Positions 4,015 through 25,100 of a stretch of DNA of 64,000 nucleotides are shown piece after piece. This DNA is from Escherichia phage ECML-359. The position numbers and the translations under genes were made by a program. The notes beneath the pieces are model-generated. The model was not told the origin of the DNA and searched no databases. It saw nothing but the letters and a program-made list of their open reading frames with translations. The DNA is taken from sequence record OL631482.1, one strand, 5' to 3'. The stretch's first letter is position 1. The number at the start of each line of letters is the position of its first letter.

Positions 4015-5148
4015 TTAATAAACGTAATCGTATATAATACCAGTTTCTAAAGCGGTGCGATGAATAACTCGACCATTACGAGATTCTTGTACATCAACCT
4101 CTGGATAGTCGGTAATCATTTTTTGAAGTGTGTATCGGTGCAAATAATACGGGCTATCCGGGTCATCAGTTTTCCAGTCTTGGCCGGCAAGAGTCATTTT
4201 CTGAATTTCATCCATAACCCACCAACCACACCAGATATAAGCTGAATTACGTACTGGCAATGGGTGAATATATGGTAATTCGCCATCTGGAACTGGTGCG
4301 ACTTTAGCCGTGACTGTTACATTACCAGTTTTGGTAACGGTTACAGGGTTATAATCTGTAGCAGATACAACAACAGAAACTTCAATTAACTGGGAACCTT
4401 CGGCGCTTGTATCGATTGCTAAAGTATCCGTGGTACCAGCGACTGGTGAACCATCTTTCTTCCAAGAATAGGCAAAAGTAGCACCAGCAGGCGCACCGGC
4501 TACAGTAGCTTTAAAAGAAGCCGGAGTTCCTTCAGGAACATTAATAGAGGTCGGTGCTAAAGTAACAGAAACACCCGACATAGTTTTCTTAACAAAAGTT
4601 ACCGCAGCTCCTTTAGATGCGGTGCCATTATTATAATCGGGTGCAGAAACAGTAACTTCACAGTTCAATGTATAATTTGCTTCTGCTGATTCGGTGACGG
4701 TAATAGTTTTACCAGTTTGACCTGCGATTACGCTAGTGTTACGTTTCCAAACGTAAGCGATTGTTGCACCAGAAGGAGCGCCTGTCACGTTAGCAGTAAC
4801 AACTTGAGATTGCCCCACTTCTTTAGTAACAGAGGCAGGGTCTAAAGTCAATGTAATAGCAGGCATTGTTTTATTCTGGATAGTTAAAGTTGTCTCAGCC
4901 TCAGCAGTTTCCGGTTCACCGTCTGCCGGAGTGGTAGTTGCAACAACTTTAATAGTCTTACTGCCTGCTGGGCCAACAGCGACATAAGTCATTGCTGCAG
5001 TCACAGAAGATTGAGGAACGCCATCAACGGTCCATACAAATGATTCAACACCTTCAGCTGCAGCGCCAGACCCGGTTGCAGTGAAATTGGTTGTTGCTCC
5101 AATAACGGCCGTAGCCGCCAAAGGAGCAATAGCTACGGTATAAGCCAT
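4015..5148 (-). CDS. hoc: Hoc, highly immunogenic outer capsid protein (tandem Ig-like domains)
   Basis: 377 aa with repeated beta-rich T/V/A-rich modules and a conserved C-terminus (YIHPLP...WCGWWVMDEIQKMT...YYLHRYTLQKM) matching T4 Hoc. Confidence 0.85.
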   Translation of the reverse strand: MAYTVAIAPLAATAVIGATTNFTATGSGAAAEGVESFVWTVDGVPQSSVTAAMTYVAVGPAGSKTIKVVATTTPADGEPETAEAETTLTIQNKTMPAITLTLDPASVTKEVGQSQVVTANVTGAPSGATIAYVWKRNTSVIAGQTGKTITVTESAEANYTLNCEVTVSAPDYNNGTASKGAAVTFVKKTMSGVSVTLAPTSINVPEGTPASFKATVAGAPAGATFAYSWKKDGSPVAGTTDTLAIDTSAEGSQLIEVSVVVSATDYNPVTVTKTGNVTVTAKVAPVPDGELPYIHPLPVRNSAYIWCGWWVMDEIQKMTLAGQDWKTDDPDSPYYLHRYTLQKMITDYPEVDVQESRNGRVIHRTALETGIIYDYVY

Positions 5149-5157
5149 AATAAACCC

Positions 5158-5823
5158 TTATTTTAAAGTGACAAAAGATGAGTTACGAGTTTCTCGTACT
5201 AGAACAGACCCATTACGATTGATGTAATAAATCAAACTGAATAGGGTTTGATGCGCGGTGGGATGTGGGAAAGCAGTTGGACGTTCTTTCCAATCCGGAG
5301 TCTCAGAAATCCACTGATAAATCCACCATGGAACAGTACAGAATCCAGGGTTCTTGCCAATAAGCATAAGATTTGGACTAAAGTTTTTTGGTAGAGCAAA
5401 TACAGGTTTTTCAGATTCGATAACCTTAGCAACAGCTGCTTCGAACTTTTCTTCGATAAAAGGAACATCTTCTTCGACCAAAACAACTGGTTCTTCGATT
5501 TCAACAACTTCAACCTTTGCTTCGGTTAGAGCATCAAATAAGAGTTTAGCTTCTTCTTTAGCTGACTCATCGCCATCAAATTTAGCACCTGACAATTCAT
5601 CGTCAGCATCAATAAGGTCGGTGATGCTCAGGCCTTCATTATCATCAGGCATAGGCATGTCAGCAAATGCTTTAAGTCCTGCTTCCAGGTCAGCCAACAT
5701 ATTATCAAAGGTTTTTGTTTTCTTAACATCAACGCCAAGTGATGCTGCGTATTCGGCTAATTTTTCTTTGGCTTCTTTTTTCTCGAGGACACGAATTTCC
5801 TCAATGTAGTTCTTGTCAATCAT
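5158..5823 (-). CDS. inh: Inh-like inhibitor of prohead protease
   Basis: 221 aa with an acidic, coiled N-terminal half, in the T4 inh position between hoc and uvsW. Confidence 0.65.
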   Translation of the reverse strand: MIDKNYIEEIRVLEKKEAKEKLAEYAASLGVDVKKTKTFDNMLADLEAGLKAFADMPMPDDNEGLSITDLIDADDELSGAKFDGDESAKEEAKLLFDALTEAKVEVVEIEEPVVLVEEDVPFIEEKFEAAVAKVIESEKPVFALPKNFSPNLMLIGKNPGFCTVPWWIYQWISETPDWKERPTAFPHPTAHQTLFSLIYYINRNGSVLVRETRNSSFVTLK

Positions 5824-5877: not shown

Positions 5878-7377
5878 ATGGATATTAAAATCAACTTTCT
5901 AAATTTTAGTCACGTGCATGTTGAATGTGAAGATGGAATCTTCTACGAACTCCGTGATTACTTCAGCTTCGAAGCTGAAAACTATCGCTTCAATCCAAAA
6001 TTCAAGCAGGGAGTTTGGGACGGACGAATCCGCCTCCTGGATTACAATCGTAAATTACCATACGGTTTGGTTAATCAAATTAAAAAGTTCGCTGACCAGT
6101 TTGGCTATTCATTCTGGATTGACCCACAAATCACCGAGAAAGAAGAAATCTCTCGCGAAGAATTCGACAAATGGGTCGAGTCAAAAGAAATCTATTCAGG
6201 CAATACTAAGATAACGCCCCATTGGTATCAATCTGACGCCGTATATGATGGTCTGGTCAACAGAAGAAAGATTCTGAACTTACCTACGTCTGCGGGTAAA
6301 AGCCTCATCCAGGCGCTTCTGGCGCGATATTATCTCGAGAACTATGAAGGCAAGGTGCTTATCCTTGTTCCTACAACCGCGCTTGTTGACCAGATGATTA
6401 ATGACTTTGTTGATTATCGGCTTTTCCCTCGTGAAGCTTGTCTGGGTATTCGTTCCGGGACTAAACGCGATTCTGATGCGATGATTTATGTATCGACTTA
6501 TCAGACGGCTGTAAAACAACCTAAAGAATGGTTTGAACAGTTCGGCCAGTTTATGAATGACGAATGTCACATGGCTACAGGTAAATCAATTTCGACGGTT
6601 ATCGAAGGCCTTACGAATTGTATGTTTAAATTTGGTCTGTCAGGCTCACTCCGTGACGGCAAAGCCAACCTTATGCAATATATGGGTCTGTTTGGTGATA
6701 TCTTTAAACCAGTATCAACATCTAAATTGATGGAAGACGGTCAGGTCACCGACCTTAAAATAAATAGTATTTTCCTTCGTTATCCTGATGAATTTACCGT
6801 TAAAATGAAAGGTAAAACTTATCAGGATGAAATTAAGGTAATTACAAAAGCTACACGCCGAAATAAATGGGTAACAAATCTTGCTCTCAAGCTTGCTAAA
6901 AAAGATGAAAACGTCTTTTTGATGTTTAAGAATATCGAGCATGGCAAATCGATGTTTGAAATGCTTAAGGAAGCTGGTCATGAGAAAGCGTATTATGTTT
7001 CCGGGGAAGTTGATACCGAAACCCGTAATGCTCTGAAGGTCATGGCAGAGAATGGAAAAGGAATTATCGTTGTAGCTTCATATGGTGTATTCTCGACGGG
7101 GATTTCCGTTAAAAACCTCCATCACATTATTTTCGCCCACCCGGTCAAGTCAAAGGTAATTGTACTTCAGACAATTGGTCGTGTACTTCGAAAACATGAA
7201 TCTAAATCGACCGCAAACGTGTGGGACATTGTGGATGATATGGGGGTCAAACCCAAATCAGCAAACGCTAAAAAGAAATATGTTCATATTAACTTTGCGC
7301 TTAAACATGCATTAGAACGTATTCAGCGGTATGCAGACGAACAATTCAATTATGTAATTAAACAGGTGGAAATATAA
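5878..7377 (+). CDS. uvsW: UvsW recombination/repair helicase (SF2)
   Basis: Starts MDIKINF as in T4 UvsW (MDIKVHF); Walker A PTSAGKS and helicase motifs. The ORF-track start at 5839 is a GTG artefact; 5878 is the first ATG. Confidence 0.9.
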   Translation: MDIKINFLNFSHVHVECEDGIFYELRDYFSFEAENYRFNPKFKQGVWDGRIRLLDYNRKLPYGLVNQIKKFADQFGYSFWIDPQITEKEEISREEFDKWVESKEIYSGNTKITPHWYQSDAVYDGLVNRRKILNLPTSAGKSLIQALLARYYLENYEGKVLILVPTTALVDQMINDFVDYRLFPREACLGIRSGTKRDSDAMIYVSTYQTAVKQPKEWFEQFGQFMNDECHMATGKSISTVIEGLTNCMFKFGLSGSLRDGKANLMQYMGLFGDIFKPVSTSKLMEDGQVTDLKINSIFLRYPDEFTVKMKGKTYQDEIKVITKATRRNKWVTNLALKLAKKDENVFLMFKNIEHGKSMFEMLKEAGHEKAYYVSGEVDTETRNALKVMAENGKGIIVVASYGVFSTGISVKNLHHIIFAHPVKSKVIVLQTIGRVLRKHESKSTANVWDIVDDMGVKPKSANAKKKYVHINFALKHALERIQRYADEQFNYVIKQVEI

Positions 7378-7975: not shown

Positions 7976-8209
7976 TTAATTTTCCTTAAAGTATCTCATA
8001 CCAGTATCTATCCCCATATTGTGAGAATAGAACGCATCATCGATGTATCCTGCAAATTTACCTTTAACATAGATAACATCTTCACCGCAAGGGTGGTCAG
8101 CGCAGATACGAATATCTGCACGATTCAATTTCCATTCCTTCATCATATACTTAATTTCTTCTTCGAACTCTTCGTCTTGGTTAAACGCATCGTCGATAGA
8201 ATATCGCAT
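7976..8209 (-). CDS. hypothetical protein (T4 uvsY.-1 position)
   Basis: 77-aa ORF; its ATG overlaps the uvsY stop. Confidence 0.5.
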   Translation of the reverse strand: MRYSIDDAFNQDEEFEEEIKYMMKEWKLNRADIRICADHPCGEDVIYVKGKFAGYIDDAFYSHNMGIDTGMRYFKEN

Positions 8210-8643
8210 TATTTGCCTGCCTCGAATTGTCTTATTTCTAACATATGTTTAAGTGCGAAACTTCGCGACTTAACACCATCTAATGCAGCGCTACAGAAGT
8301 CCTGGAGTAGTGCCCAATACTGAATTGAAGTATCAATCTTCAGTATGTTTGAATCTGCTGCCATGACTGTTTTCAATTCCGACTTCTCGTATACATCCAT
8401 GCATACTTCTTCCCCTGGGTCACCTCTTCCCGTATAATGGTCTAGTCGTTTTTTCAGTGCAGTTTTCTTCTGAATCTCAAGACGCATTATTTCTTTCTTG
8501 CAGTTGGTATACAATCTCAACCATTTGCTATGCAACAAAACGTTGTTTTGTGTTTCATATTGAAGTTGCGTACCATCAATTTTTAAATCTGCATCTAACT
8601 CATCCTGAAAGACTTCTAACTTATATTCAATCTCTGTTTTCAT
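8209..8643 (-). CDS. uvsY: UvsY recombination mediator
   Basis: Resembles T4 UvsY (...HSKWL...EIMRLEIQKKTALKKRLDHYTGRGD...KSRSFALKHMLEIRQFEAGK). Start moved to internal Met11, because the ORF-track start lies inside the promoter -10 element. Confidence 0.8.
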   Translation of the reverse strand: MKTEIEYKLEVFQDELDADLKIDGTQLQYETQNNVLLHSKWLRLYTNCKKEIMRLEIQKKTALKKRLDHYTGRGDPGEEVCMDVYEKSELKTVMAADSNILKIDTSIQYWALLQDFCSAALDGVKSRSFALKHMLEIRQFEAGK

Positions 8644-16334: not shown

Positions 16335-18395
16335 CTATGAAAGGAATTTAGGAGGAATAGCTTCCAAATTAATACAACTAGCAAGAATACCAAGCCCTTG
16401 ATTGACTTTCTTCGTTACCCCAGAGGATGCAAACGATGCAAAGTCAACAGATTCTACTGGCTCTTCTGTTTCCTCGCCCTGATAAACGACAAGCTCACCA
16501 GTTTCTATCAACACATCACCATCATAGATAACTGCATTTTCATCCAGTTGGTCCGTGGTCTGGATATCAGCTTCCAGCATTTTGACGTTCGCGTTTCCTT
16601 GATACGAAGCATCAGTAATTTTGGTAATCTTAACTACAGTCCCACGAGGAAGAATAACTTCCTGCTCGGATGGGTTGCTTGACAATTCCCCAGGAACAAT
16701 TACGTTAATTAAGTCCGCCCCAGAAATTTTCCAACCAACATGCATCATTACGTGGTCGCGGCGTGCTTCCGGCATATCTGGTAAAACAATTTCGTCATCA
16801 GCCTGGAAAGATGTCCCATCACGATAGTCCTGATGAACTGCAGCCATAGCAACGTTCGCCACCCAGCCACCAAAGATAATCGGTTTAAACGACGTTGATA
16901 CATAGTTCCTGAAATAAAATAATTTAGATTTCTTAATTTTATCAAATGTAGGAACGTTTAAATATTGACCACGCCAAAGAGTTGTATTAGGCGGCAACTT
17001 ATGTCCAATTTCAAAGGCCGAATCCAATTCCTTAATTGTTTCGACAACTCTGTCTAGATTTAGGAATTCAGCTTCTTCTTCATAATATTTGCCCATCAAA
17101 TAATTATTAATATCGGCATAGTTTGCTCCACAATAATCTGCAATTGCTTCTCGCTGACCATAATGGAAACGGTTGTCAGTATACCCTGCTGTGAAATTAA
17201 GAGTATTTTCTGATGCTTCTTCAGCAAAGTCTTTAACTGCAACACGAATGGCGCTTGTGTATTCTTTTTCCCAGAGCGAGGCTGCATAAGTGGCTGCATC
17301 CACATTAGGAGGAGCATCATTCATTTTTCTTTCGATAAATGCGGCTTTGCGAAGGTTAAGAATCTCTGCGCATGATTCGGCAAAAATCTGCATCTGCTTC
17401 ATACTACCAACTGGAGCACGTTTAAGTTCGCGATGCATACGGTTAAAAATTGGGTCAGAGTCTTCAACACGAATTTCTTCTTTCCAAACACCATTTGCTC
17501 GCATAGCCGTATCTGCTGCGCGCATACGAGCCATAGTATTCGTTTCGGAAGGTCGAACAAAAATTTCCAGTTCTTCATAATCATCGATAAGTTCTGCCGT
17601 AGCCGGTCGACTAAACTTAGCAGCTTCTGCATCAATTTCGTCCCAACCTTCTGGCACGGAATCCATTGGGGCGTACTGGGCTTGTGCAATAGCTCGGCGA
17701 CTGATTTTAGTTTTCTGGGCAACAGCAGCATCGGTCTTTTTGTTTGCTGCGTCAATCAGAATCTCGGCTGCAATTTCTTGTTTGGATACTTGTGCACCAT
17801 TATCTTTATTGGTGAATACATCACCAACTTTAGTTTCGACTTTTTTATATTTCTCAGGGACTGGTGGCATACCATCGACTGAAAGCAGGTCAACACCCCT
17901 TTTGTACATAATTACATAAGCGTTCTTTTTACCAAGGCCAGAAGCATTCGGAAGAACATGATAACGTCCGCTGGTTTTCATTTGAATCAGTCGATTCATA
18001 ATACGAATAATAGCTTGGTCTTGTCCTTTCATCTTTTTGGATGGGAAACGGAACAAGACTACATCAGGTTTGCCTAGTTTAATGCTTTCCCAGACTGTAG
18101 TAAAAATCAAGTTAATTGCATCAAGAGGTTTTTCACCTAAACCACCCTTCAGAGGAACAGCATGGCCATGTGAAGTCCCGGATAACAGAAATACCTCGGC
18201 AATTGCATCACCGCGTTTATATTGTTTAACTGTTTCTTTGCCCGTGAATTGCATCAAACGGGCCATAAGAGAATTGGTCCCAGGAACACCGAATTGCCAA
18301 ACCTGTGGGACCTTGTATTTTGGATTCATATTAATGACAGGATAACCGAAGGTTTCGATATATTTGTCAAAGAGTTCATTTAATTGTTCAGACAT
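16335..18395 (-). CDS. alt: Alt ADP-ribosyltransferase (virion-packaged)
   Basis: 686 aa (T4 Alt is 682 aa) with T4 synteny and a late promoter upstream. Confidence 0.85.
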   Translation of the reverse strand: MSEQLNELFDKYIETFGYPVINMNPKYKVPQVWQFGVPGTNSLMARLMQFTGKETVKQYKRGDAIAEVFLLSGTSHGHAVPLKGGLGEKPLDAINLIFTTVWESIKLGKPDVVLFRFPSKKMKGQDQAIIRIMNRLIQMKTSGRYHVLPNASGLGKKNAYVIMYKRGVDLLSVDGMPPVPEKYKKVETKVGDVFTNKDNGAQVSKQEIAAEILIDAANKKTDAAVAQKTKISRRAIAQAQYAPMDSVPEGWDEIDAEAAKFSRPATAELIDDYEELEIFVRPSETNTMARMRAADTAMRANGVWKEEIRVEDSDPIFNRMHRELKRAPVGSMKQMQIFAESCAEILNLRKAAFIERKMNDAPPNVDAATYAASLWEKEYTSAIRVAVKDFAEEASENTLNFTAGYTDNRFHYGQREAIADYCGANYADINNYLMGKYYEEEAEFLNLDRVVETIKELDSAFEIGHKLPPNTTLWRGQYLNVPTFDKIKKSKLFYFRNYVSTSFKPIIFGGWVANVAMAAVHQDYRDGTSFQADDEIVLPDMPEARRDHVMMHVGWKISGADLINVIVPGELSSNPSEQEVILPRGTVVKITKITDASYQGNANVKMLEADIQTTDQLDENAVIYDGDVLIETGELVVYQGEETEEPVESVDFASFASSGVTKKVNQGLGILASCINLEAIPPKFLS

Positions 18396-18420
18396 AATAG
18401 GTTCCTTATAAAATATGATG

Positions 18421-18428
18421 TATTTATA
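18421..18428 (-). promoter_or_regulatory. late promoter TATAAATA for alt (minus strand)
   Basis: Minus strand reads agTATAAATAcatcatattttataAGGAACctattATG. Confidence 0.55.
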
Positions 18429-18430
18429 CT

Positions 18431-18453
18431 AAAAAAGGGCCGAAGCCCTTTTG
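18431..18453 (-). terminator. rho-independent terminator downstream of gene 30
   Basis: GGGC-cgaa-GCCC hairpin followed by a T-run, just after the ligase stop. Confidence 0.6.
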
Positions 18454-19986
18454 TTATTTTAATCCAGTCTTTGACCAGTCGCCAAATACATCTTCGAATG
18501 TGTCTGCATGGTCTTTATCAAAACGGAACCCTTTGATAATCGACAGGAACAATGCAACCGTATTATCTTTACGAGTCTCGGAAGTCAACCAACCATTGCA
18601 TTCACAGTCGGCAATCATTCCAACCAATTCACCTTTACGTGCTTTAACCATCAAGGCTTCACGGTCCATTTCATGACGCTCCTCAATCGGAATAGTAACC
18701 CATTTTTTGGTTTTCTTATCTTTGACTTGAGTTGTGTCTTTAAAACCAGAACCACAGTTATTTGTAATCTTACCACAAGAAGAACGAAGCACCACACCGC
18801 CAATCTTATTCGGGTCTTTATCGTGCTCGTAATATCCAATGATTTCCATTGCAATGTCAATTACTTCTTTGAACTTATACAGGTTCTTTGAGCGCTTGTT
18901 TTCCCAAATCGATGCCATGTTCTTAAGGATAATACCTTCAAGGCCTTCATCCACGTATTTCTTATAGATAACTTTCGCTTCATCAAGATTGTTAACAACA
19001 TGGTTTTCAATCAGAATCATGCGGTCAAAACCATGCAGCACCACGTTATCTGCAATCATCTTTTCCAGAACAGCAAAACGCACATCGTATTTCAACGGAT
19101 TGAGAATCTTAACATCAGAATAGACTTCAATCAGCGGAACATAATCCCAAACCTGGAATTTCATACAAGAAGCTTCTGCTGCAGAAATAGTTCCTTTCAA
19201 TGATTTGTTTGCCATACCATTTGAAAAGGTTCTTGATTCAGCAGTTTCTTTTGCAGGAGCAATCTCATCTGAATCGTCAAAAAGGAAGCCCAAACCGTCA
19301 TTCTGGGGAGCTATTTTCTGTTCATGGTATACTAACTCGCCATCAATTAAAACGCCCTCAGGATGTCTCTCGCGCGCTTCACGAGTAGCTTCAATCAATT
19401 CCTTTTTAAGGAGGTCAAGCTTGAGGTACTCATTTCCGGCTCGGGATAACAATCGAACATCATCCAACTCATCGCCGCGAACTTCTGCAAAACACCGAGC
19501 GCCATCGGCTTTCAATTGTGCAAAGGCCGGGAACTTAATGTTCTTAGCAATACCAGCTTCATCATAAGAAGAAGCGAGCATCTGCGGTTGTTCAGGAATT
19601 AAACCTTTCCAAACCTTATTCGCAATTGATACAGATGCACCACATTCCAGGTCACGCATCATCACACGCCGCAAGACTTCAACATCGGCCTTTTTACCAT
19701 CTGCAATATAACCAGATAATTCCTCGATTGCCGCATTACCTGTTAATTTGCGAGAGGCTAATGTGAATTCGATAAAGTCAAGCATATCATCGATATTCAA
19801 CATACCAAAGCTTTGAGTCGTTGCCCCAGGTTTTGGCCATTTCTTTATATAGAACTGGATGCCTTTGGAATATGTCAAACGATACACGCGTTTAAGGGTT
19901 TCATTATCAGAATACGATTCTAAGATAGCTTGTTTCTCTTTAGTAGAATCGGTTGCAGCAATTTCATTTAAAATATCTAAAATCAT
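18454..19986 (-). CDS. 30: ATP-dependent DNA ligase
   Basis: Adenylation motif KADGARC; N- and C-termini match T4 ligase (MIL.ILNEIA..., ...TFEDVFGD). Confidence 0.9.
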   Translation of the reverse strand: MILDILNEIAATDSTKEKQAILESYSDNETLKRVYRLTYSKGIQFYIKKWPKPGATTQSFGMLNIDDMLDFIEFTLASRKLTGNAAIEELSGYIADGKKADVEVLRRVMMRDLECGASVSIANKVWKGLIPEQPQMLASSYDEAGIAKNIKFPAFAQLKADGARCFAEVRGDELDDVRLLSRAGNEYLKLDLLKKELIEATREARERHPEGVLIDGELVYHEQKIAPQNDGLGFLFDDSDEIAPAKETAESRTFSNGMANKSLKGTISAAEASCMKFQVWDYVPLIEVYSDVKILNPLKYDVRFAVLEKMIADNVVLHGFDRMILIENHVVNNLDEAKVIYKKYVDEGLEGIILKNMASIWENKRSKNLYKFKEVIDIAMEIIGYYEHDKDPNKIGGVVLRSSCGKITNNCGSGFKDTTQVKDKKTKKWVTIPIEERHEMDREALMVKARKGELVGMIADCECNGWLTSETRKDNTVALFLSIIKGFRFDKDHADTFEDVFGDWSKTGLK

Positions 19987-19996
19987 TAATCACCTC

Positions 19997-20275
19997 TTAG
20001 TCGTTGACTCTATTATATGCCACGTCTTCCAAAAGCAAATCCAGCCGCTTATGATAAGTGAACACAAATTTAGTTGCCCCGTCTGGTTTCATTTTGGTCA
20101 TGAAGTGAATATAGATAAATCCTTGCTCAACGCATTCACGCCAAACGGGGTTATCTTTAGCCGGATTAATATCAAACGAGTAATTATGATTCACATGACG
20201 AATAAACTGATTAACATGACCGTAATCCATCGTGGTAGTTGGACCATGGTCAGAAATAGTATGAACGACAAACAT
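19997..20275 (-). CDS. hypothetical protein (T4 30.1 position)
   Basis: ATG is the second codon of the ORF-track entry; overlaps the stop of the upstream gene. Confidence 0.55.
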   Translation of the reverse strand: MFVVHTISDHGPTTTMDYGHVNQFIRHVNHNYSFDINPAKDNPVWRECVEQGFIYIHFMTKMKPDGATKFVFTYHKRLDLLLEDVAYNRVND

Positions 20276-21099
20276 CAATTACCCCCTTGGCCACCGGTCG
20301 GTTGATTGTACCAGTATTCAATACCAGTACCTACACGCTGGCCATATTGATATGGATATGCTGGATTATATCCAGGAGTCCACGGTTGACCAGGCTGCCA
20401 GCCTTGCTGCATTTGTTGTTGAAGGCGTCGAGTTTCACGAAACAGCTCTTCCAGTTTACGGAGTTCATCTGGAGTGAATTCTGGTTTGACTGGTTCATCT
20501 TTGTGTTTCAGTTTAAGCTGTCCAGCAACATCGTCCCAATTAAAAACTTTGGAAGCTGTTTTAGGAATAGCATCACGTTCGCCGCGGGCCATCCAATAAA
20601 CCGGAACCTCAAGAATTTCACTCGCATGGTCGCAATGGTGTGCAAGGTCATCAATATAACAAATGACATTATATTTGTCTTTTGCCTTCTGAAACAAATC
20701 CTCTTTAGAGGCTGTATGGCCACACATCATCACTTCTTTAAACGCTCCAGGGAACAAAGCATTCAGGTTAAATTGACGATTCAAGCGTGCGTCAATGGAA
20801 TCACCCAGGGCTGTAACAGCCACAAAATCATATTGCTCTTTGAGGTTATTGATAACCCTTAATGCATCCGCATAAGGAGACAAATAGCGAATAAAGTCTG
20901 AACAGTTATATTTTTCAATTAACTGCGCGCCTAACTCTTCATCACAATTGAAAAGTTTACCAGGGGTCACAAATTTTTCGTCCTGAATCATCTTAAGGAT
21001 ATGTTCCAGGGGTAAATTATATTTTTGAGCGAAATAAGGTAAGCCAGACTGCCATGACAAACATACGCCATCAATATCTGTTAAAATAACGGGTTTCAT
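20275..21099 (-). CDS. HAD-like hydrolase with Q/P/Y/G-rich C-terminal tail (T4 30.2 position)
   Basis: N-terminal DIDGV HAD motif I; C-terminal low-complexity tail QQQMQQGWQPGQPWTPGYNPAYPYQYGQRVGTGIEYWYNQPTGGQGGN. Confidence 0.6.
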   Translation of the reverse strand: MKPVILTDIDGVCLSWQSGLPYFAQKYNLPLEHILKMIQDEKFVTPGKLFNCDEELGAQLIEKYNCSDFIRYLSPYADALRVINNLKEQYDFVAVTALGDSIDARLNRQFNLNALFPGAFKEVMMCGHTASKEDLFQKAKDKYNVICYIDDLAHHCDHASEILEVPVYWMARGERDAIPKTASKVFNWDDVAGQLKLKHKDEPVKPEFTPDELRKLEELFRETRRLQQQMQQGWQPGQPWTPGYNPAYPYQYGQRVGTGIEYWYNQPTGGQGGN

Positions 21100-21554
21100 A
21101 ATGCATCTCTCAATTGGTTAAGTATGTCAATAAATTCTTGTTCAGTCAATATTGTATCATGAACAGTAAGGTGGCTCGCCATCGAATGCTTTAAAACTTT
21201 GCCTTTTGTGGATTGTAACGCATTGCGGAATCCTTGGTTCTGGAGCGCTGCTTCAAAATATGCATTTGTATACAGCTCTTTCCATGCTGCAGAGTATCTT
21301 GAAAAGGGAATTCCAAGCCAGAAAAGCGTCCCACGGTCCGCAGCTCTTGCATAAGCTCTTCCACTTTGCTGGGCGGCCAATCCGGACATCCCAAATATAC
21401 GTTTTTGTTGTTCATGATTTCTCACCTTGCACCCTTGTAGGAAGCCTTCAAGACCTCCAAACTGGATACCCTCCATAACAAAAGGCCATTTAGCAAAGTT
21501 ACTTAATGCACATGATGGCCATGGGAAATTGCTTCTGATTTCTAACTCAGACAT
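21096..21554 (-). CDS. NADAR/YbiA-like (DUF1768) domain protein (T4 30.3 position)
   Basis: Motif LSNFAKWPF matches the YbiA/NADAR signature FSNFAAWP. Start set at the first ATG (Met4). Confidence 0.55.
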   Translation of the reverse strand: MSELEIRSNFPWPSCALSNFAKWPFVMEGIQFGGLEGFLQGCKVRNHEQQKRIFGMSGLAAQQSGRAYARAADRGTLFWLGIPFSRYSAAWKELYTNAYFEAALQNQGFRNALQSTKGKVLKHSMASHLTVHDTILTEQEFIDILNQLRDAL

Positions 21555-21759
21555 TTTTGACACTGATAATCTCTACATCAGCCCAATGACCATAACCAGG
21601 TAAACGGTCTTTAATAGATAATCCGCCGTCAGATTTCAGCATTTTAATTGTTTTAGTATATGGTTCAATATTTCGGGCCCATGGACTTACGTCAGTCACG
21701 CGATAAGTAACTTCAACCATTTCTGTTCCCAAAATTTTCTGAATCAGTTTCTTAAACAT
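21547..21759 (-). CDS. hypothetical protein
   Basis: 70-aa ORF in the 30.x cluster. Confidence 0.45.
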   Translation of the reverse strand: MFKKLIQKILGTEMVEVTYRVTDVSPWARNIEPYTKTIKMLKSDGGLSIKDRLPGYGHWADVEIISVKNV

Positions 21760-21760
21760 A

Positions 21761-21955
21761 TTATCCTCGCTTTAAACATTTGATTACAGACAACTCACCA
21801 CCCATGCGAACGTCTTCAGTTCCATCAACCCACAAGACTGCATATGCTTCTTTAATTTGGGTATTGCCTAATTTAAACGCAGGCAGGACCTTTGAAATCA
21901 TTCCAGGAATACCCACACCTTTTAACTGAACAGTTTGTGATAAGAATAATTTCAT
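21761..21955 (-). CDS. hypothetical protein
   Basis: 64-aa ORF in the 30.x cluster. Confidence 0.45.
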   Translation of the reverse strand: MKLFLSQTVQLKGVGIPGMISKVLPAFKLGNTQIKEAYAVLWVDGTEDVRMGGELSVIKCLKRG

Positions 21956-22245
21956 TAGAACCTCATCTGGAAACCGTGTGATTTAACATTACCGCCATTA
22001 ATATCAGATGAATTAATTTCACGTGCTGCAATTGGGGCAATATCAATGTCGCGTCTAAGCTTGGTGATTGCCAGAGTATCGCGTCCATTAACAGTCCGGA
22101 ATTCTAGTGGGCAAACTACATCAACATAGTTCTTAATGGAATCACGTGTTGGTTCACACCCAGCAGGAACATTAGGGCCTTTTTTAGAGAAAACAACTTC
22201 ACAGAAATTTTTACGTGTATCAAAGTAAGTAGTCATAAACATAGT
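21955..22245 (-). CDS. hypothetical protein
   Basis: Start placed at the internal Met with a GAGGAAA RBS (96 aa). Confidence 0.45.
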   Translation of the reverse strand, partial: TMFMTTYFDTRKNFCEVVFSKKGPNVPAGCEPTRDSIKNYVDVVCPLEFRTVNGRDTLAITKLRRDIDIAPIAAREINSSDINGGNVKSHGFQMRF

Positions 22246-22279
22246 ATTTTCCTCAAGGGGCTTTCGCCCCCATTTAAGA

Positions 22280-22645
22280 TTAGATATCAAATTCATTAAG
22301 AACTACATCAAAGATTGCTTCCAGGTGTTCAGGTTTTGCTTTGTTGCTCAGGATGTGACGAATCCAAGTTTTAACCAGAAGCTTGCGATTAACACCATTC
22401 CAGCAAGGATGAGTCCCTAAATCACGTTCACGGAAATCATCATCTAATGCGATTTTGAATACCGAACCTTCCATCGTGATTGAAAGAGTGATACCATTTT
22501 CAAATCGCATATAAACGTAGTTAGGAGTCATATATTGTTCAATTTCACACACTGAACCGTTTTGATGTTTCCACAAGCAAATAACTTCAGAAGAACCTGG
22601 GATGCAGTTAGAAACATATTTGCGTTCAAAGTTGATGTAGTTCAT
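22280..22645 (-). CDS. hypothetical protein
   Basis: 121-aa ORF preceded by the conserved RBS CTGGAGAATAAAATG. Confidence 0.5.
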   Translation of the reverse strand: MNYINFERKYVSNCIPGSSEVICLWKHQNGSVCEIEQYMTPNYVYMRFENGITLSITMEGSVFKIALDDDFRERDLGTHPCWNGVNRKLLVKTWIRHILSNKAKPEHLEAIFDVVLNEFDI

Positions 22646-22716
22646 TTTATTCTCCAGTTGTTTTCATTTGTTGGTACAGGTCTATAATATCATAACCTGT
22701 ACCAAAGTAAACTGTT

Positions 22717-23085
22717 TTATGCGACTTTAATCCAATTATCTAAATTTAATTCACCTTTAGCTTTCATTTTTTCAATCAGAAGGTCTGCAGTGGTGCGACC
22801 ATTTTGATACCATGTAACATCTTCAGAATAACCAGTTTCTTCATCTTCATAGGTCTTACAACGAATCTTACCCAAAATCAAAGTTTTCAGTTCGTAGGTA
22901 TCACCAGTAAAAAAGTTTGTTACCATAATTTTCCAGGAGAAGTCATCAGAAGGACCTTCAGGAGTCATACAACCAACAAATTCAAACTGTTCTTTATACA
23001 AGTGCCATTGCATTTCTTTAGTTTCAATGGCTTTGTAACCGTCGTGGTCTTTACCTTTGATGTATGAGTTAAGATTGATTTTCAT
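22717..23085 (-). CDS. hypothetical protein
   Basis: 122-aa ORF preceded by an early promoter and the conserved leader motif. Confidence 0.5.
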   Translation of the reverse strand: MKINLNSYIKGKDHDGYKAIETKEMQWHLYKEQFEFVGCMTPEGPSDDFSWKIMVTNFFTGDTYELKTLILGKIRCKTYEDEETGYSEDVTWYQNGRTTADLLIEKMKAKGELNLDNWIKVA

Positions 23086-23106
23086 TTTATTCTCCAGTGT
23101 TTTATT

Positions 23107-23131
23107 GTGTAACTCAGTATGGAATCATTAT
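23107..23131 (-). repeat. conserved 25-nt early-leader motif, copy 1 of 4 (plus-strand gtgtaactcagtatggaatcattat)
   Basis: The same 25-mer recurs near 40358, 57266 and 61493, each immediately downstream of an early promoter -10 on the minus strand. Confidence 0.6.
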
Positions 23132-23156
23132 GCACTGGGCAAATCCTGTTGTAAAC
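23126..23156 (-). promoter_or_regulatory. T4-type early promoter (-35 GTTTACA, -10 cATAAT)
   Basis: Minus strand reads ggggTTTACAacaggatttgcccagtgcATAATGattcc. Confidence 0.5.
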
Positions 23157-23173
23157 CCCTTTATGGAAAATAA

Positions 23174-23200
23174 AAAAGGGACTCCGAAGAGTCCCTGAAC
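23174..23200 (-). terminator. rho-independent terminator
   Basis: GGGACTC-ttcg-GAGTCCC hairpin followed by TTTTTTATTTT on the minus strand. Confidence 0.6.
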
Positions 23201-23362
23201 TTATGCTTTCGGCTTACCAAAGCAAGCTGCATCGGCGCGCAATACCGCACGAGCACGAGCCTGAAGTTTATCAGTCACCTGATTGATTCGCTTGTTGGAC
23301 GCACGCTTGTAACCAGCGCGTTTGGAGGAGCCATCAACAACTTTAACTTCTTTCTTAGCCAT
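23201..23362 (-). CDS. small basic protein (53 aa)
   Basis: Hand-found ORF MAKKEVKVVDGSSKRAGYKRASNKRINQVTDKLQARARAVLRADAACFGKPKA, immediately followed by a terminator. Confidence 0.4.
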   Translation of the reverse strand: MAKKEVKVVDGSSKRAGYKRASNKRINQVTDKLQARARAVLRADAACFGKPKA

Positions 23363-23759
23363 ATTAAATTCTCTTTAAAATAGAAGCAGGACTTATTGGC
23401 ATTGCCTGCGCAAGCCCTCGAAGGGAACATTAGGTTTCGGATATTTAACGACAGGATAACCATAAACCTCGTCATCATACCTTATAGCTCTTATCTGTTG
23501 CACACCGTTAGCTTAAAGGTTCCGGGTTCGATTTCTCGAGGATAAGATATATACTGATGGATATATAGGCCTTGAGGCGTACTCCCGATTGGCCATCACC
23601 TCGGGGTAGCATGCACTTGCCGCTATAAGAATAACATTCAAGAGGTACACCGTAAAACTGCCGGGGTCTTAAAACTATAATGATTCGCAAATCATTAATC
23701 AGACGGTTCGACGGCTCCTCGATTTTCTAGCCGCACTAAGGTAGCGAATCACCTACAGC

Positions 23760-24014
23760 TTACTTCAGGGTTACGACAAAATGGCGAACAGCTTTACGGG
23801 CAGCAGATGCCAGCGGCTTAGCAAATTTCAGTTCATCTTTTGCTTCGAGCACTGCGCGAAGGTCGGTTTGAACCGGGTTAAGATGTTTGAAATACTGCAG
23901 AATTTCCAGTGCTTCGGCTTCAACATCAATAGATGCGCCGTAGTTTTCGTGACCGTTATTCCATGCAGTGCGTTGCAGTTCGAGAGCGTGTTGTAATTGT
24001 TTGTTTAAAGACAT
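23760..24014 (-). CDS. rIII: rIII lysis-inhibition accessory protein
   Basis: Start placed at internal Met24 (84 aa; T4 rIII is 82 aa); sequence MSLNKQLQHALELQRTAWNNG... Confidence 0.7.
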   Translation of the reverse strand: MSLNKQLQHALELQRTAWNNGHENYGASIDVEAEALEILQYFKHLNPVQTDLRAVLEAKDELKFAKPLASAARKAVRHFVVTLK

Positions 24015-24185
24015 TTTAGAAGCCTCAATATGAGGTGAATATTTGGTGGACACGTTCTTCTGAATTTCACTTCCTTTCGGCAAGTCTCTCAGTTGTAGTC
24101 CACCGTTTAGGATTAGCTAACCCCATACACCAGCAAAGCTCTGTATGACATCAACCAATCCATATTATTATTTATAACGCTAATT

Positions 24186-24533
24186 TTACTTATAAAGACA
24201 AGGAACAGCTTTATAATGACAGGTCACAAATTTCTGCTTAACTTCTTTAGCCTGCTTAAGTCCCAGTGCAACCAGAGGATGTGGAACGTTTGCAATCTTG
24301 CCAACCGGAAGAGGAGTCAAATCACCTACTTCGCAGAATCCTTCAGGAACATCCGGACCAACCGAAAATACTTCACACATCTCCGGGATTTCACCCTGAT
24401 GGAGTTTTCCGATAACGATACCTGATGCCGTAGTTTCTTCATCACCAGCTTGCTTTGGCTCAGAAACCAAAATAATATATTCACCTACTGCTTTAATTGG
24501 TAATTCCATATTTAATCCATGTTGTTTGGTCAT
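24186..24533 (-). CDS. 31: gp31 co-chaperonin (GroES-like)
   Basis: Strong similarity to T4 gp31 (...[19 protein letters not shown]...[15 protein letters not shown]). Confidence 0.85.
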
Positions 24534-24564
24534 GTATTAATAATAACATGCATTGTTTGAAGCA

Positions 24565-24864
24565 TTAAAGGACTAGCAAAGTCTCGGTCTGCAGTCCATT
24601 CACGGAAATCAATTTATTGAAACAGAATGAACGCCATTCATTAAGCTTGGTATCAAATACCCGGATATAGCTAACTGGTTCTTTATTGACTTCTGGTCCA
24701 GGGGCCTGGATTTCTTTATACGGAAGCAGGTCCAGGTCGCGAGTACAAGTCATACGACGGATGCTACCATCTGCTTTTTCAAACAGAACTTCATGAAAGC
24801 CGACAGACAAGATAGTCTTGACTTTTTCGCGAAGGCGAATTGTTTCTTGTTCAGTTAAAATCAT
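24565..24864 (-). CDS. hypothetical protein (T4 31.1 position)
   Basis: 99-aa ORF. Confidence 0.5.
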   Translation of the reverse strand: MILTEQETIRLREKVKTILSVGFHEVLFEKADGSIRRMTCTRDLDLLPYKEIQAPGPEVNKEPVSYIRVFDTKLNEWRSFCFNKLISVNGLQTETLLVL

Positions 24865-24866
24865 AA

Positions 24867-25100
24867 TTATTCCAAAACAGTTTTAATAGTGGTTGCATTA
24901 CGCTCTTTTAGAGCACTCAGCAGGGATTTACATTTTTCAAAAACCGGGTCCGTTTTATACCGGATGCTTTCGTCAATCCATTCGGATTTATAGTAAGACT
25001 TCCAGCGAGAGAAGAAATACTTTTTGTATTCCACCGAAAAAGAGATTATACCCGTCCCCCGAGGACTAAGGCTGGTTATTTTAACCATACGAAATTTCAT
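24867..25100 (-). CDS. hypothetical protein (T4 31.2 position)
   Basis: 77-aa ORF. Confidence 0.5.
   Translation of the reverse strand: MKFRMVKITSLSPRGTGIISFSVEYKKYFFSRWKSYYKSEWIDESIRYKTDPVFEKCKSLLSALKERNATTIKTVLE

Follow-up and report, generated by a model that had tools for sequence, protein, structure and literature searches.

The gene analysed here lies within a 64,000-nucleotide stretch of phage DNA (the window) and is an open reading frame of 459 nt, comprising 152 codons and a TGA stop. A sequence-only reading of the window had described a product of about 152 residues carrying the motif LSNFAKWPF. The open reading frame and the motif are real, and the gene is encoded on the minus strand, which had not been stated (Table 1). 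An in-frame GTG at position 21563 would, if used as the start codon, add three residues to the product; an ATG start is annotated for gene 30.3 in T4 and in the close relative vB_EcoM_RZ. The gene, referred to as adfN for reasons given below, is flanked by homologs of genes 30.4 and 30.2, with both of which it overlaps: 8 nt (ATGTCTGA) are shared between the start of adfN and the end of 30.4, and the sequence ATGA is shared between its stop and the start of 30.2. The same overlaps with 30.4 and 30.2 are found in T4, where gene 30.3 occupies the same genomic slot. The earlier placement of the gene in the 30.x cluster is therefore correct, whereas its description as adjacent to alt was loose, since 2.7 kb containing the ligase gene, 30.1, and 30.2 separate the two. 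Alt, identified by PF03496, is the only nearby ADP-ribosyltransferase and is not a DarT.

Table 1. Features at the adfN locus, with positions in the window.
Feature	Position	Strand	Remarks
adfN / gene 30.3 CDS, 152 aa + stop	21096..21554	minus	predicted orphan NADAR-fold DNA ADP-ribosylglycohydrolase
N-terminal NADAR signature LSNFAKWPF, residues 17-25	21480..21506	minus	translation; alignment with YbiA
E36 codon, distal-ribose coordination	21447..21449	minus	equivalent to PnNADAR E43 and E. coli C7 NADAR E88
K43 codon, phosphate coordination	21426..21428	minus	equivalent to PnNADAR K50 and E. coli C7 NADAR K95
H123 codon, last beta-strand	21186..21188	minus	His instead of YbiA Glu or DarG1-type Asp
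C-terminal helix, residues 138-152	21099..21143	minus	absent from the defective RB69 allele
Gene 30.4 homolog, 70 aa	21547..21759	minus	phrog_2042
Gene 30.2 homolog, 274 aa	20275..21099	minus	phrog_420, E = 1e-78
Embedded +1-frame ORF, 74 aa	21191..21415	minus	T4 annotation 30.3'
alt ADP-ribosyltransferase	16335..18395	same strand as adfN	PF03496

The ORF embedded in adfN is uninterrupted in the window and in T4, vB_EcoM_RZ, and vB_YenM_P8; in RB69 it is cut to 34 aa, and distant homologs lack it. In comparison with T4, third positions of the adfN frame show no reduction in change across the overlap (27 of 76 codons inside, 24 of 60 outside), which makes it unlikely that 30.3' is a constrained gene; it is probably neither conserved nor functional. 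Promoter and terminator scans of the region returned sites no more numerous than in shuffled sequence. A strong terminator-like hairpin with a T-run (8-bp stem, five G-C pairs) is present on the minus strand at 23177..23196, just upstream of 30.8, and promoter-like sites come after it at 23084..23155 on the same strand; these elements may mark the start of an early transcription unit that extends through adfN. The base composition of positions 18000..25000 is unremarkable. Between the 30.9 and rIII homologs, about 400 bp (23363..23759) contain no long ORF and have a G+C content of 0.45–0.47, above that of their surroundings; an Rfam search of 18000..25000, including this interval, gave no match.

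The adfN product aligns with T4 gp30.3 over all 152 residues without gaps, at 84% identity (25 substitutions). Its sole Pfam match is to PF08010 (Phage_30_3), which it covers from position 2 to position 138 of 138 (E = 1.1e-62; 210.4 bits against a cut-off of 36), and it also matches phrog_652, a PHROG entry without an assigned function. Judged by its sequence, the product belongs to the gp30.3/AdfN clade (PF08010) in every feature by which that clade is recognized. At the DNA level, adfN is 100% identical to its counterparts in the Escherichia phages TH22, TH55, and UPEC07 and 97% identical to that of vB_EcoM_RZ, a member of the closest genus, Gaprivervirus; T4 belongs to a different genus. 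The RB69 allele carries a frameshift, and its product ends after residue 137; the window allele is full length and retains every residue that is invariant in an alignment of 54 homologs. Over the first 136 codons, 40 codons differ from T4 synonymously and 21 non-synonymously, and third positions account for 51 of the 82 base differences. Because change relative to T4 is mostly synonymous and concentrated at third positions, the reading frame is under purifying selection. The adfN gene of the window is thus an intact ortholog of T4 gp30.3/AdfN from a Gaprivervirus-like T-even phage.

Direct sequence searches did not connect the product to the NADAR superfamily. The Pfam NADAR profile PF08719 gave no match to it at E ≤ 1, phmmer matched no chain in the PDB, a PADLOC search (including DarG) found no match, and an NCBIfam search returned noise only; a PDB search with the homolog P0029 yielded chance matches only, and no record was found for the Methylocystis homolog P0043. 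The relationship is visible only through profiles, intermediate sequences, and a structure model. The profile search that the sequence-only reading had proposed as a check therefore failed for the product itself but succeeded for its relatives: 18 of the 54 family homologs individually match PF08719, with a best value of 1.5e-7. The missing direct match is a limit of model sensitivity, with PF08010 covering the clade. A profile built from the family matches E. coli YbiA (2b3w) at E = 0.008, in an alignment that spans the SNF motif and the E-x6-K element. LSNFAKWPF is aligned there with FSNFAAWP (YbiA residues 29–36), the signature to which it had been likened. Across all six translated frames of the window, a loosened form of the motif is found at one place only, and L17, S18, N19, and F25 are invariant in the 54 homologs.

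The structure prediction agrees with the profile data. An AlphaFold2 model of the adfN product, computed from an alignment of 53 sequences with the T4 row left out, has a pLDDT of 93.9 and a pTM of 0.88. In a Foldseek search of the PDB, its top three matches were YbiA, a Phytophthora NADAR with ADP-ribose (8bau), and the Geobacter lovleyi NADAR (8bat), and all further matches had E > 2. The modeled fold is YbiA-like, with an alpha-helical core and two small flanking beta-sheets. By fold and motif, the modeled product is a member of the NADAR superfamily, as the YbiA/NADAR-like assignment had held.

Three positions define the putative active site. A glutamate and a lysine seven residues apart follow the SNF motif (E36 and K43) and align with the corresponding residues of YbiA; the equivalents of these residues are responsible for coordinating the distal ribose (Glu) and the phosphates (Lys), as described by Schuller et al. 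2023 (PMC11543638). The third catalytic position distinguishes subfamilies: Glu marks YbiA-type proteins, Asp the DarT1-linked NADARs, and His those of phages (PMC11543638; the substitution is also described in PMC11825919). Here it is H123. The alignment of the homolog P0094 to YbiA stops one residue before the histidine, which places that residue opposite the YbiA glutamate after L-V. E36 and H123 are invariant in the 54 homologs, and K43 is conserved in at least 90% of them. The catalytic residues whose absence would have spoken against the assignment are thus in place, with the third in the form typical of the clade. In T4 AdfN, E36A impairs function in vivo and abolishes activity on ADP-ribosylated DNA in vitro, K43A is likewise impairing, and truncation at an RB69-like position reduces activity (PMC11825919). 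Residues 138–152 are present in the window allele, and the model contains a helix at residues 138–151. E36, K43, H123, and the C-terminal helix are common to T4 gp30.3 and the window protein, and comparison of the two sequences suggests no functional difference.

The function of the T4 protein, described in the sequence-only reading as poorly characterized in T-even phages, was published between 2023 and 2025. In vitro, T4 gp30.3 hydrolyzes guanine-ADPr but not thymine-ADPr, and it is unable to protect uninfected cells against DarT1 (Cihlova et al. 2024, PMC11125620). The DarTG1 resistance of T2 and T4 was mapped to gene 30.3, which was renamed adfN, for anti-DarT factor NADAR; its deletion renders T4 and T2 sensitive to DarTG1, its ectopic expression rescues RB69, and the purified T4 protein takes ADP-ribose off DNA (Johannesman et al. 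2025, PMC11825919). DarTG2 is not countered by T4 AdfN (PMC11825919). In a 2025 transposon-screen preprint, insertions in T4 30.3/adfN were lost only with DarTG1 present, and the gene was dispensable on E. coli K-12 without DarTG1. T4 gp30.3/AdfN is therefore a guanine-specific DNA ADP-ribosylglycohydrolase that is necessary and sufficient for T-even DarTG1 resistance (Schuller 2023; Cihlova 2024; Johannesman 2025; preprint). The gene is thus already known and explained in the literature, and the present analysis adds no new biology to it.

Comparison with other NADARs sets the window protein apart from two cellular subfamilies. DarG1, represented by the DarT1-linked antitoxins of the BC4488 subfamily (G. 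lovleyi 8bat, 219 aa), contains an N-terminal beta1-beta2-alpha1 extension that is absent from the 152-aa adfN product; the latter aligns with 131 of the 219 residues of 8bat, and its SNF motif begins at residue 17 of 152. DarG1 uses a catalytic Asp where the adfN product has His, and it is encoded in an operon with DarT1, whereas no DarT gene adjoins adfN. Furthermore, T4 AdfN cannot replace DarG1 in uninfected cells (PMC11825919). An identity as a DarG1 antitoxin is ruled out by the lack of a DarT neighbor, the missing extension, and the His in place of Asp. YbiA of E. coli (2b3w, PF08719) carries Glu in the last strand, and its gene serves a housekeeping role in the host from within an operon under LexA control (PMC11125620); membership of the YbiA subfamily is ruled out by the His at the Glu position. 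AdfN(Bas32), AdfN(Bas60), and further phage NADARs from outside the T4 superfamily are likewise orphan proteins that counter DarTG1 via guanine de-ADP-ribosylation (PMC11825919). They represent other NADAR clades, stem from independent acquisitions, and are effective without a T-even context (PMC11825919).

The gp30.3 family is found in 1510 phage records, mostly of T4-like phages infecting enterobacteria, Aeromonas, Acinetobacter, and Vibrio. Relatives at 35–43% identity are encoded at 262 bacterial and archaeal loci (one-per-species genomes), and E36, K43, and H123 are kept in all 79 ORFs recovered from such loci (L009–L088, with the match usually at about 5001–5450). His-type NADARs thus occur outside phages as well, and gut bacteria commonly carry them as stand-alone chromosomal genes. 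Many of the bacterial relatives lie on contigs of 0.35–1.4 Mb among housekeeping genes (GroEL, LysRS, Der, trigger factor). Among the immediate neighbors, the commonest Pfam families are Cpn60 (5), a second PF08010 gene (5), ADP-ribosylglycohydrolase (4), NUDIX (4), and GLF (3; UDP-galactopyranose mutase), and DarT is not among the 25 recurrent neighbor families listed. Since the bacterial His-type NADARs stand alone, with no recurrent DarT neighbor, the T-even enzyme may descend from such genes, and the phage clade may thus have its origin in stand-alone bacterial NADARs and not in a DarG1 antitoxin. These relatives bear on the proposed DarG1 origin of AdfN.

On a 466-kb metagenomic contig (L004), a gp30.3-type NADAR at 6001–6468 is surrounded by dense, small, unannotated ORFs, and the contig may represent a jumbo phage. 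Genes of NUDIX, Thg1-like, and GLF-like type are found no more than 6 kb from this NADAR. The two genes that follow it were tested as homologs of 30.2 and ligase and proved not to be.

Based on these data, the gene in the window is, with a probability of about 0.87, an AdfN ortholog that removes DarT1-attached ADP-ribose from phage guanine. AdfN would be made early in infection from the tightly packed 30.x gene string. Host DarT1 would attach ADP-ribose to guanine N2 in phage DNA and block replication; AdfN, as a small stand-alone NADAR-fold N-glycosidase, would hydrolyze the guanine-ribose bond, releasing ADP-ribose and restoring the base, so that the phage could replicate in DarTG1 hosts. 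In the window, the basis of this reading is orthology, a full-length allele, the NADAR fold, and the conserved E36, K43, and H123, with the enzymology coming from the T4 protein. The 84%-identical window allele would be expected to act like T4 AdfN in activity and phenotype. The suggestion made at the outset, of an anti-defense role through reversal of a DarT-type DNA modification, is likewise supported for the predicted product by the published activity of its ortholog.

T4 AdfN exerts its full effect only in T-even infections, with non-T-even phages partly rescued (PMC11825919; PMC11125620). Its failure to neutralize DarT1 in uninfected cells, together with the partial rescue of non-T-even phages, indicates a T-even-specific component in vivo. 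One proposal, which we consider unlikely, is that this component is the product of an overlapping gene, either the HAD-phosphatase-like gp30.2 or gp30.4, making the locus a two-part counter-defense module, and, separately, that the T-even enzyme came from stand-alone bacterial genes and not from DarG1. The HAD-phosphatase-like motifs of gp30.2, DIDGV at residues 8–12 and YIDD, were read from the sequence. The protein has a C-terminal low-complexity tail rich in Q, G, P, and Y, and only its N-terminal ~190 residues are conserved in distant phages. Searches of gp30.2 against Pfam, NCBIfam, and PADLOC gave no match, and weak matches were obtained to a polynucleotide kinase phrog. Gene 30.2 is present in 1448 phage records, compared to 1510 for 30.3, with nearly equal host breakdowns; these similar counts are uninformative on functional coupling because both genes are widespread in T4-like phages.

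Two further alternatives to the removal of ADP-ribose from DNA concern the substrate. The main substrates could be soluble ADP-ribose derivatives, such as immune signaling nucleotides or RNA-repair by-products, as Iyer et al. 2022 (PMC9503650) argued on context, before experiments, for the NADAR and Macro domains of phages. The recurrent ADP-ribosylglycohydrolase and NUDIX neighbors of the bacterial His-type relatives are in line with such a role, as is the NUDIX gene on the viral-like contig described above. However, T4 AdfN works directly on ADP-ribosylated DNA in vitro, its loss results in a specific DarTG1 phenotype, and a second substrate is unnecessary to explain the data, which leaves this alternative quite improbable. 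The enzyme could instead be an eraser for the phage's own Alt, ModA, and ModB, limiting or recycling protein or RNA modifications. Such a role would explain the proximity of alt on the same strand, and T4-like NADAR genes are expressed early, with ARTs (Iyer et al. 2022, PMC9503650). The NADAR-ligase-alt neighborhood is also kept in Proteus phage phiP4-3. In Aeromonas phage 31, however, the NADAR gene is located near nrd genes, and this loss of linkage indicates that the gene and alt do not form a conserved functional unit. The target of Alt is arginine in proteins, whereas the NADARs assayed cleave the N-glycosidic guanine-ADPr bond. With the dispensability of adfN on E. coli K-12 lacking DarTG1 also counting against it, a role in erasing the phage's own modifications is very unlikely.

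[quoted passage not shown] Nor is there much to recommend a decaying or inactive allele like that of RB69: truncated and fused alleles are common in databases, but the intact length, preserved invariant residues, and mostly synonymous divergence of the window allele leave almost no room for it. Removal of DarT1-attached ADP-ribose from guanine is accordingly retained as the preferred reading.

Natural adfN alleles are often truncated (126, 109, or ~90 aa) or fused to PF11097 or PF06919 (gp30.7) (proteins P0004–P0006 and P0013–P0019), and one phage (OL770073.2, 77518–77676) retains only residues 100–152. This pattern suggests repeated gene loss, as in RB69.

In related GenBank records, the gene is nearly always annotated as "hypothetical protein" or mislabeled as "DNA ligase" or "baseplate hub". 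In Yersinia phage vB_YenM_P8 (PP693301.1, with 30.3 at 8001–8498), 30.3 is labeled "DNA ligase", 30.4 "baseplate hub protein", 30.1 "baseplate tail tube cap protein", and 30.7 "head vertex protein"; MW250787.1 is listed with it among the records that mislabel gene 30.3 and its neighbors. A correct annotation is now possible: adfN, anti-DarTG1 DNA ADP-ribosylglycohydrolase. Orthology predicts that the phage of the window, unlike RB69, should plate on DarTG1 hosts, a prediction that is useful in picking phages for DarTG1-carrying strains.
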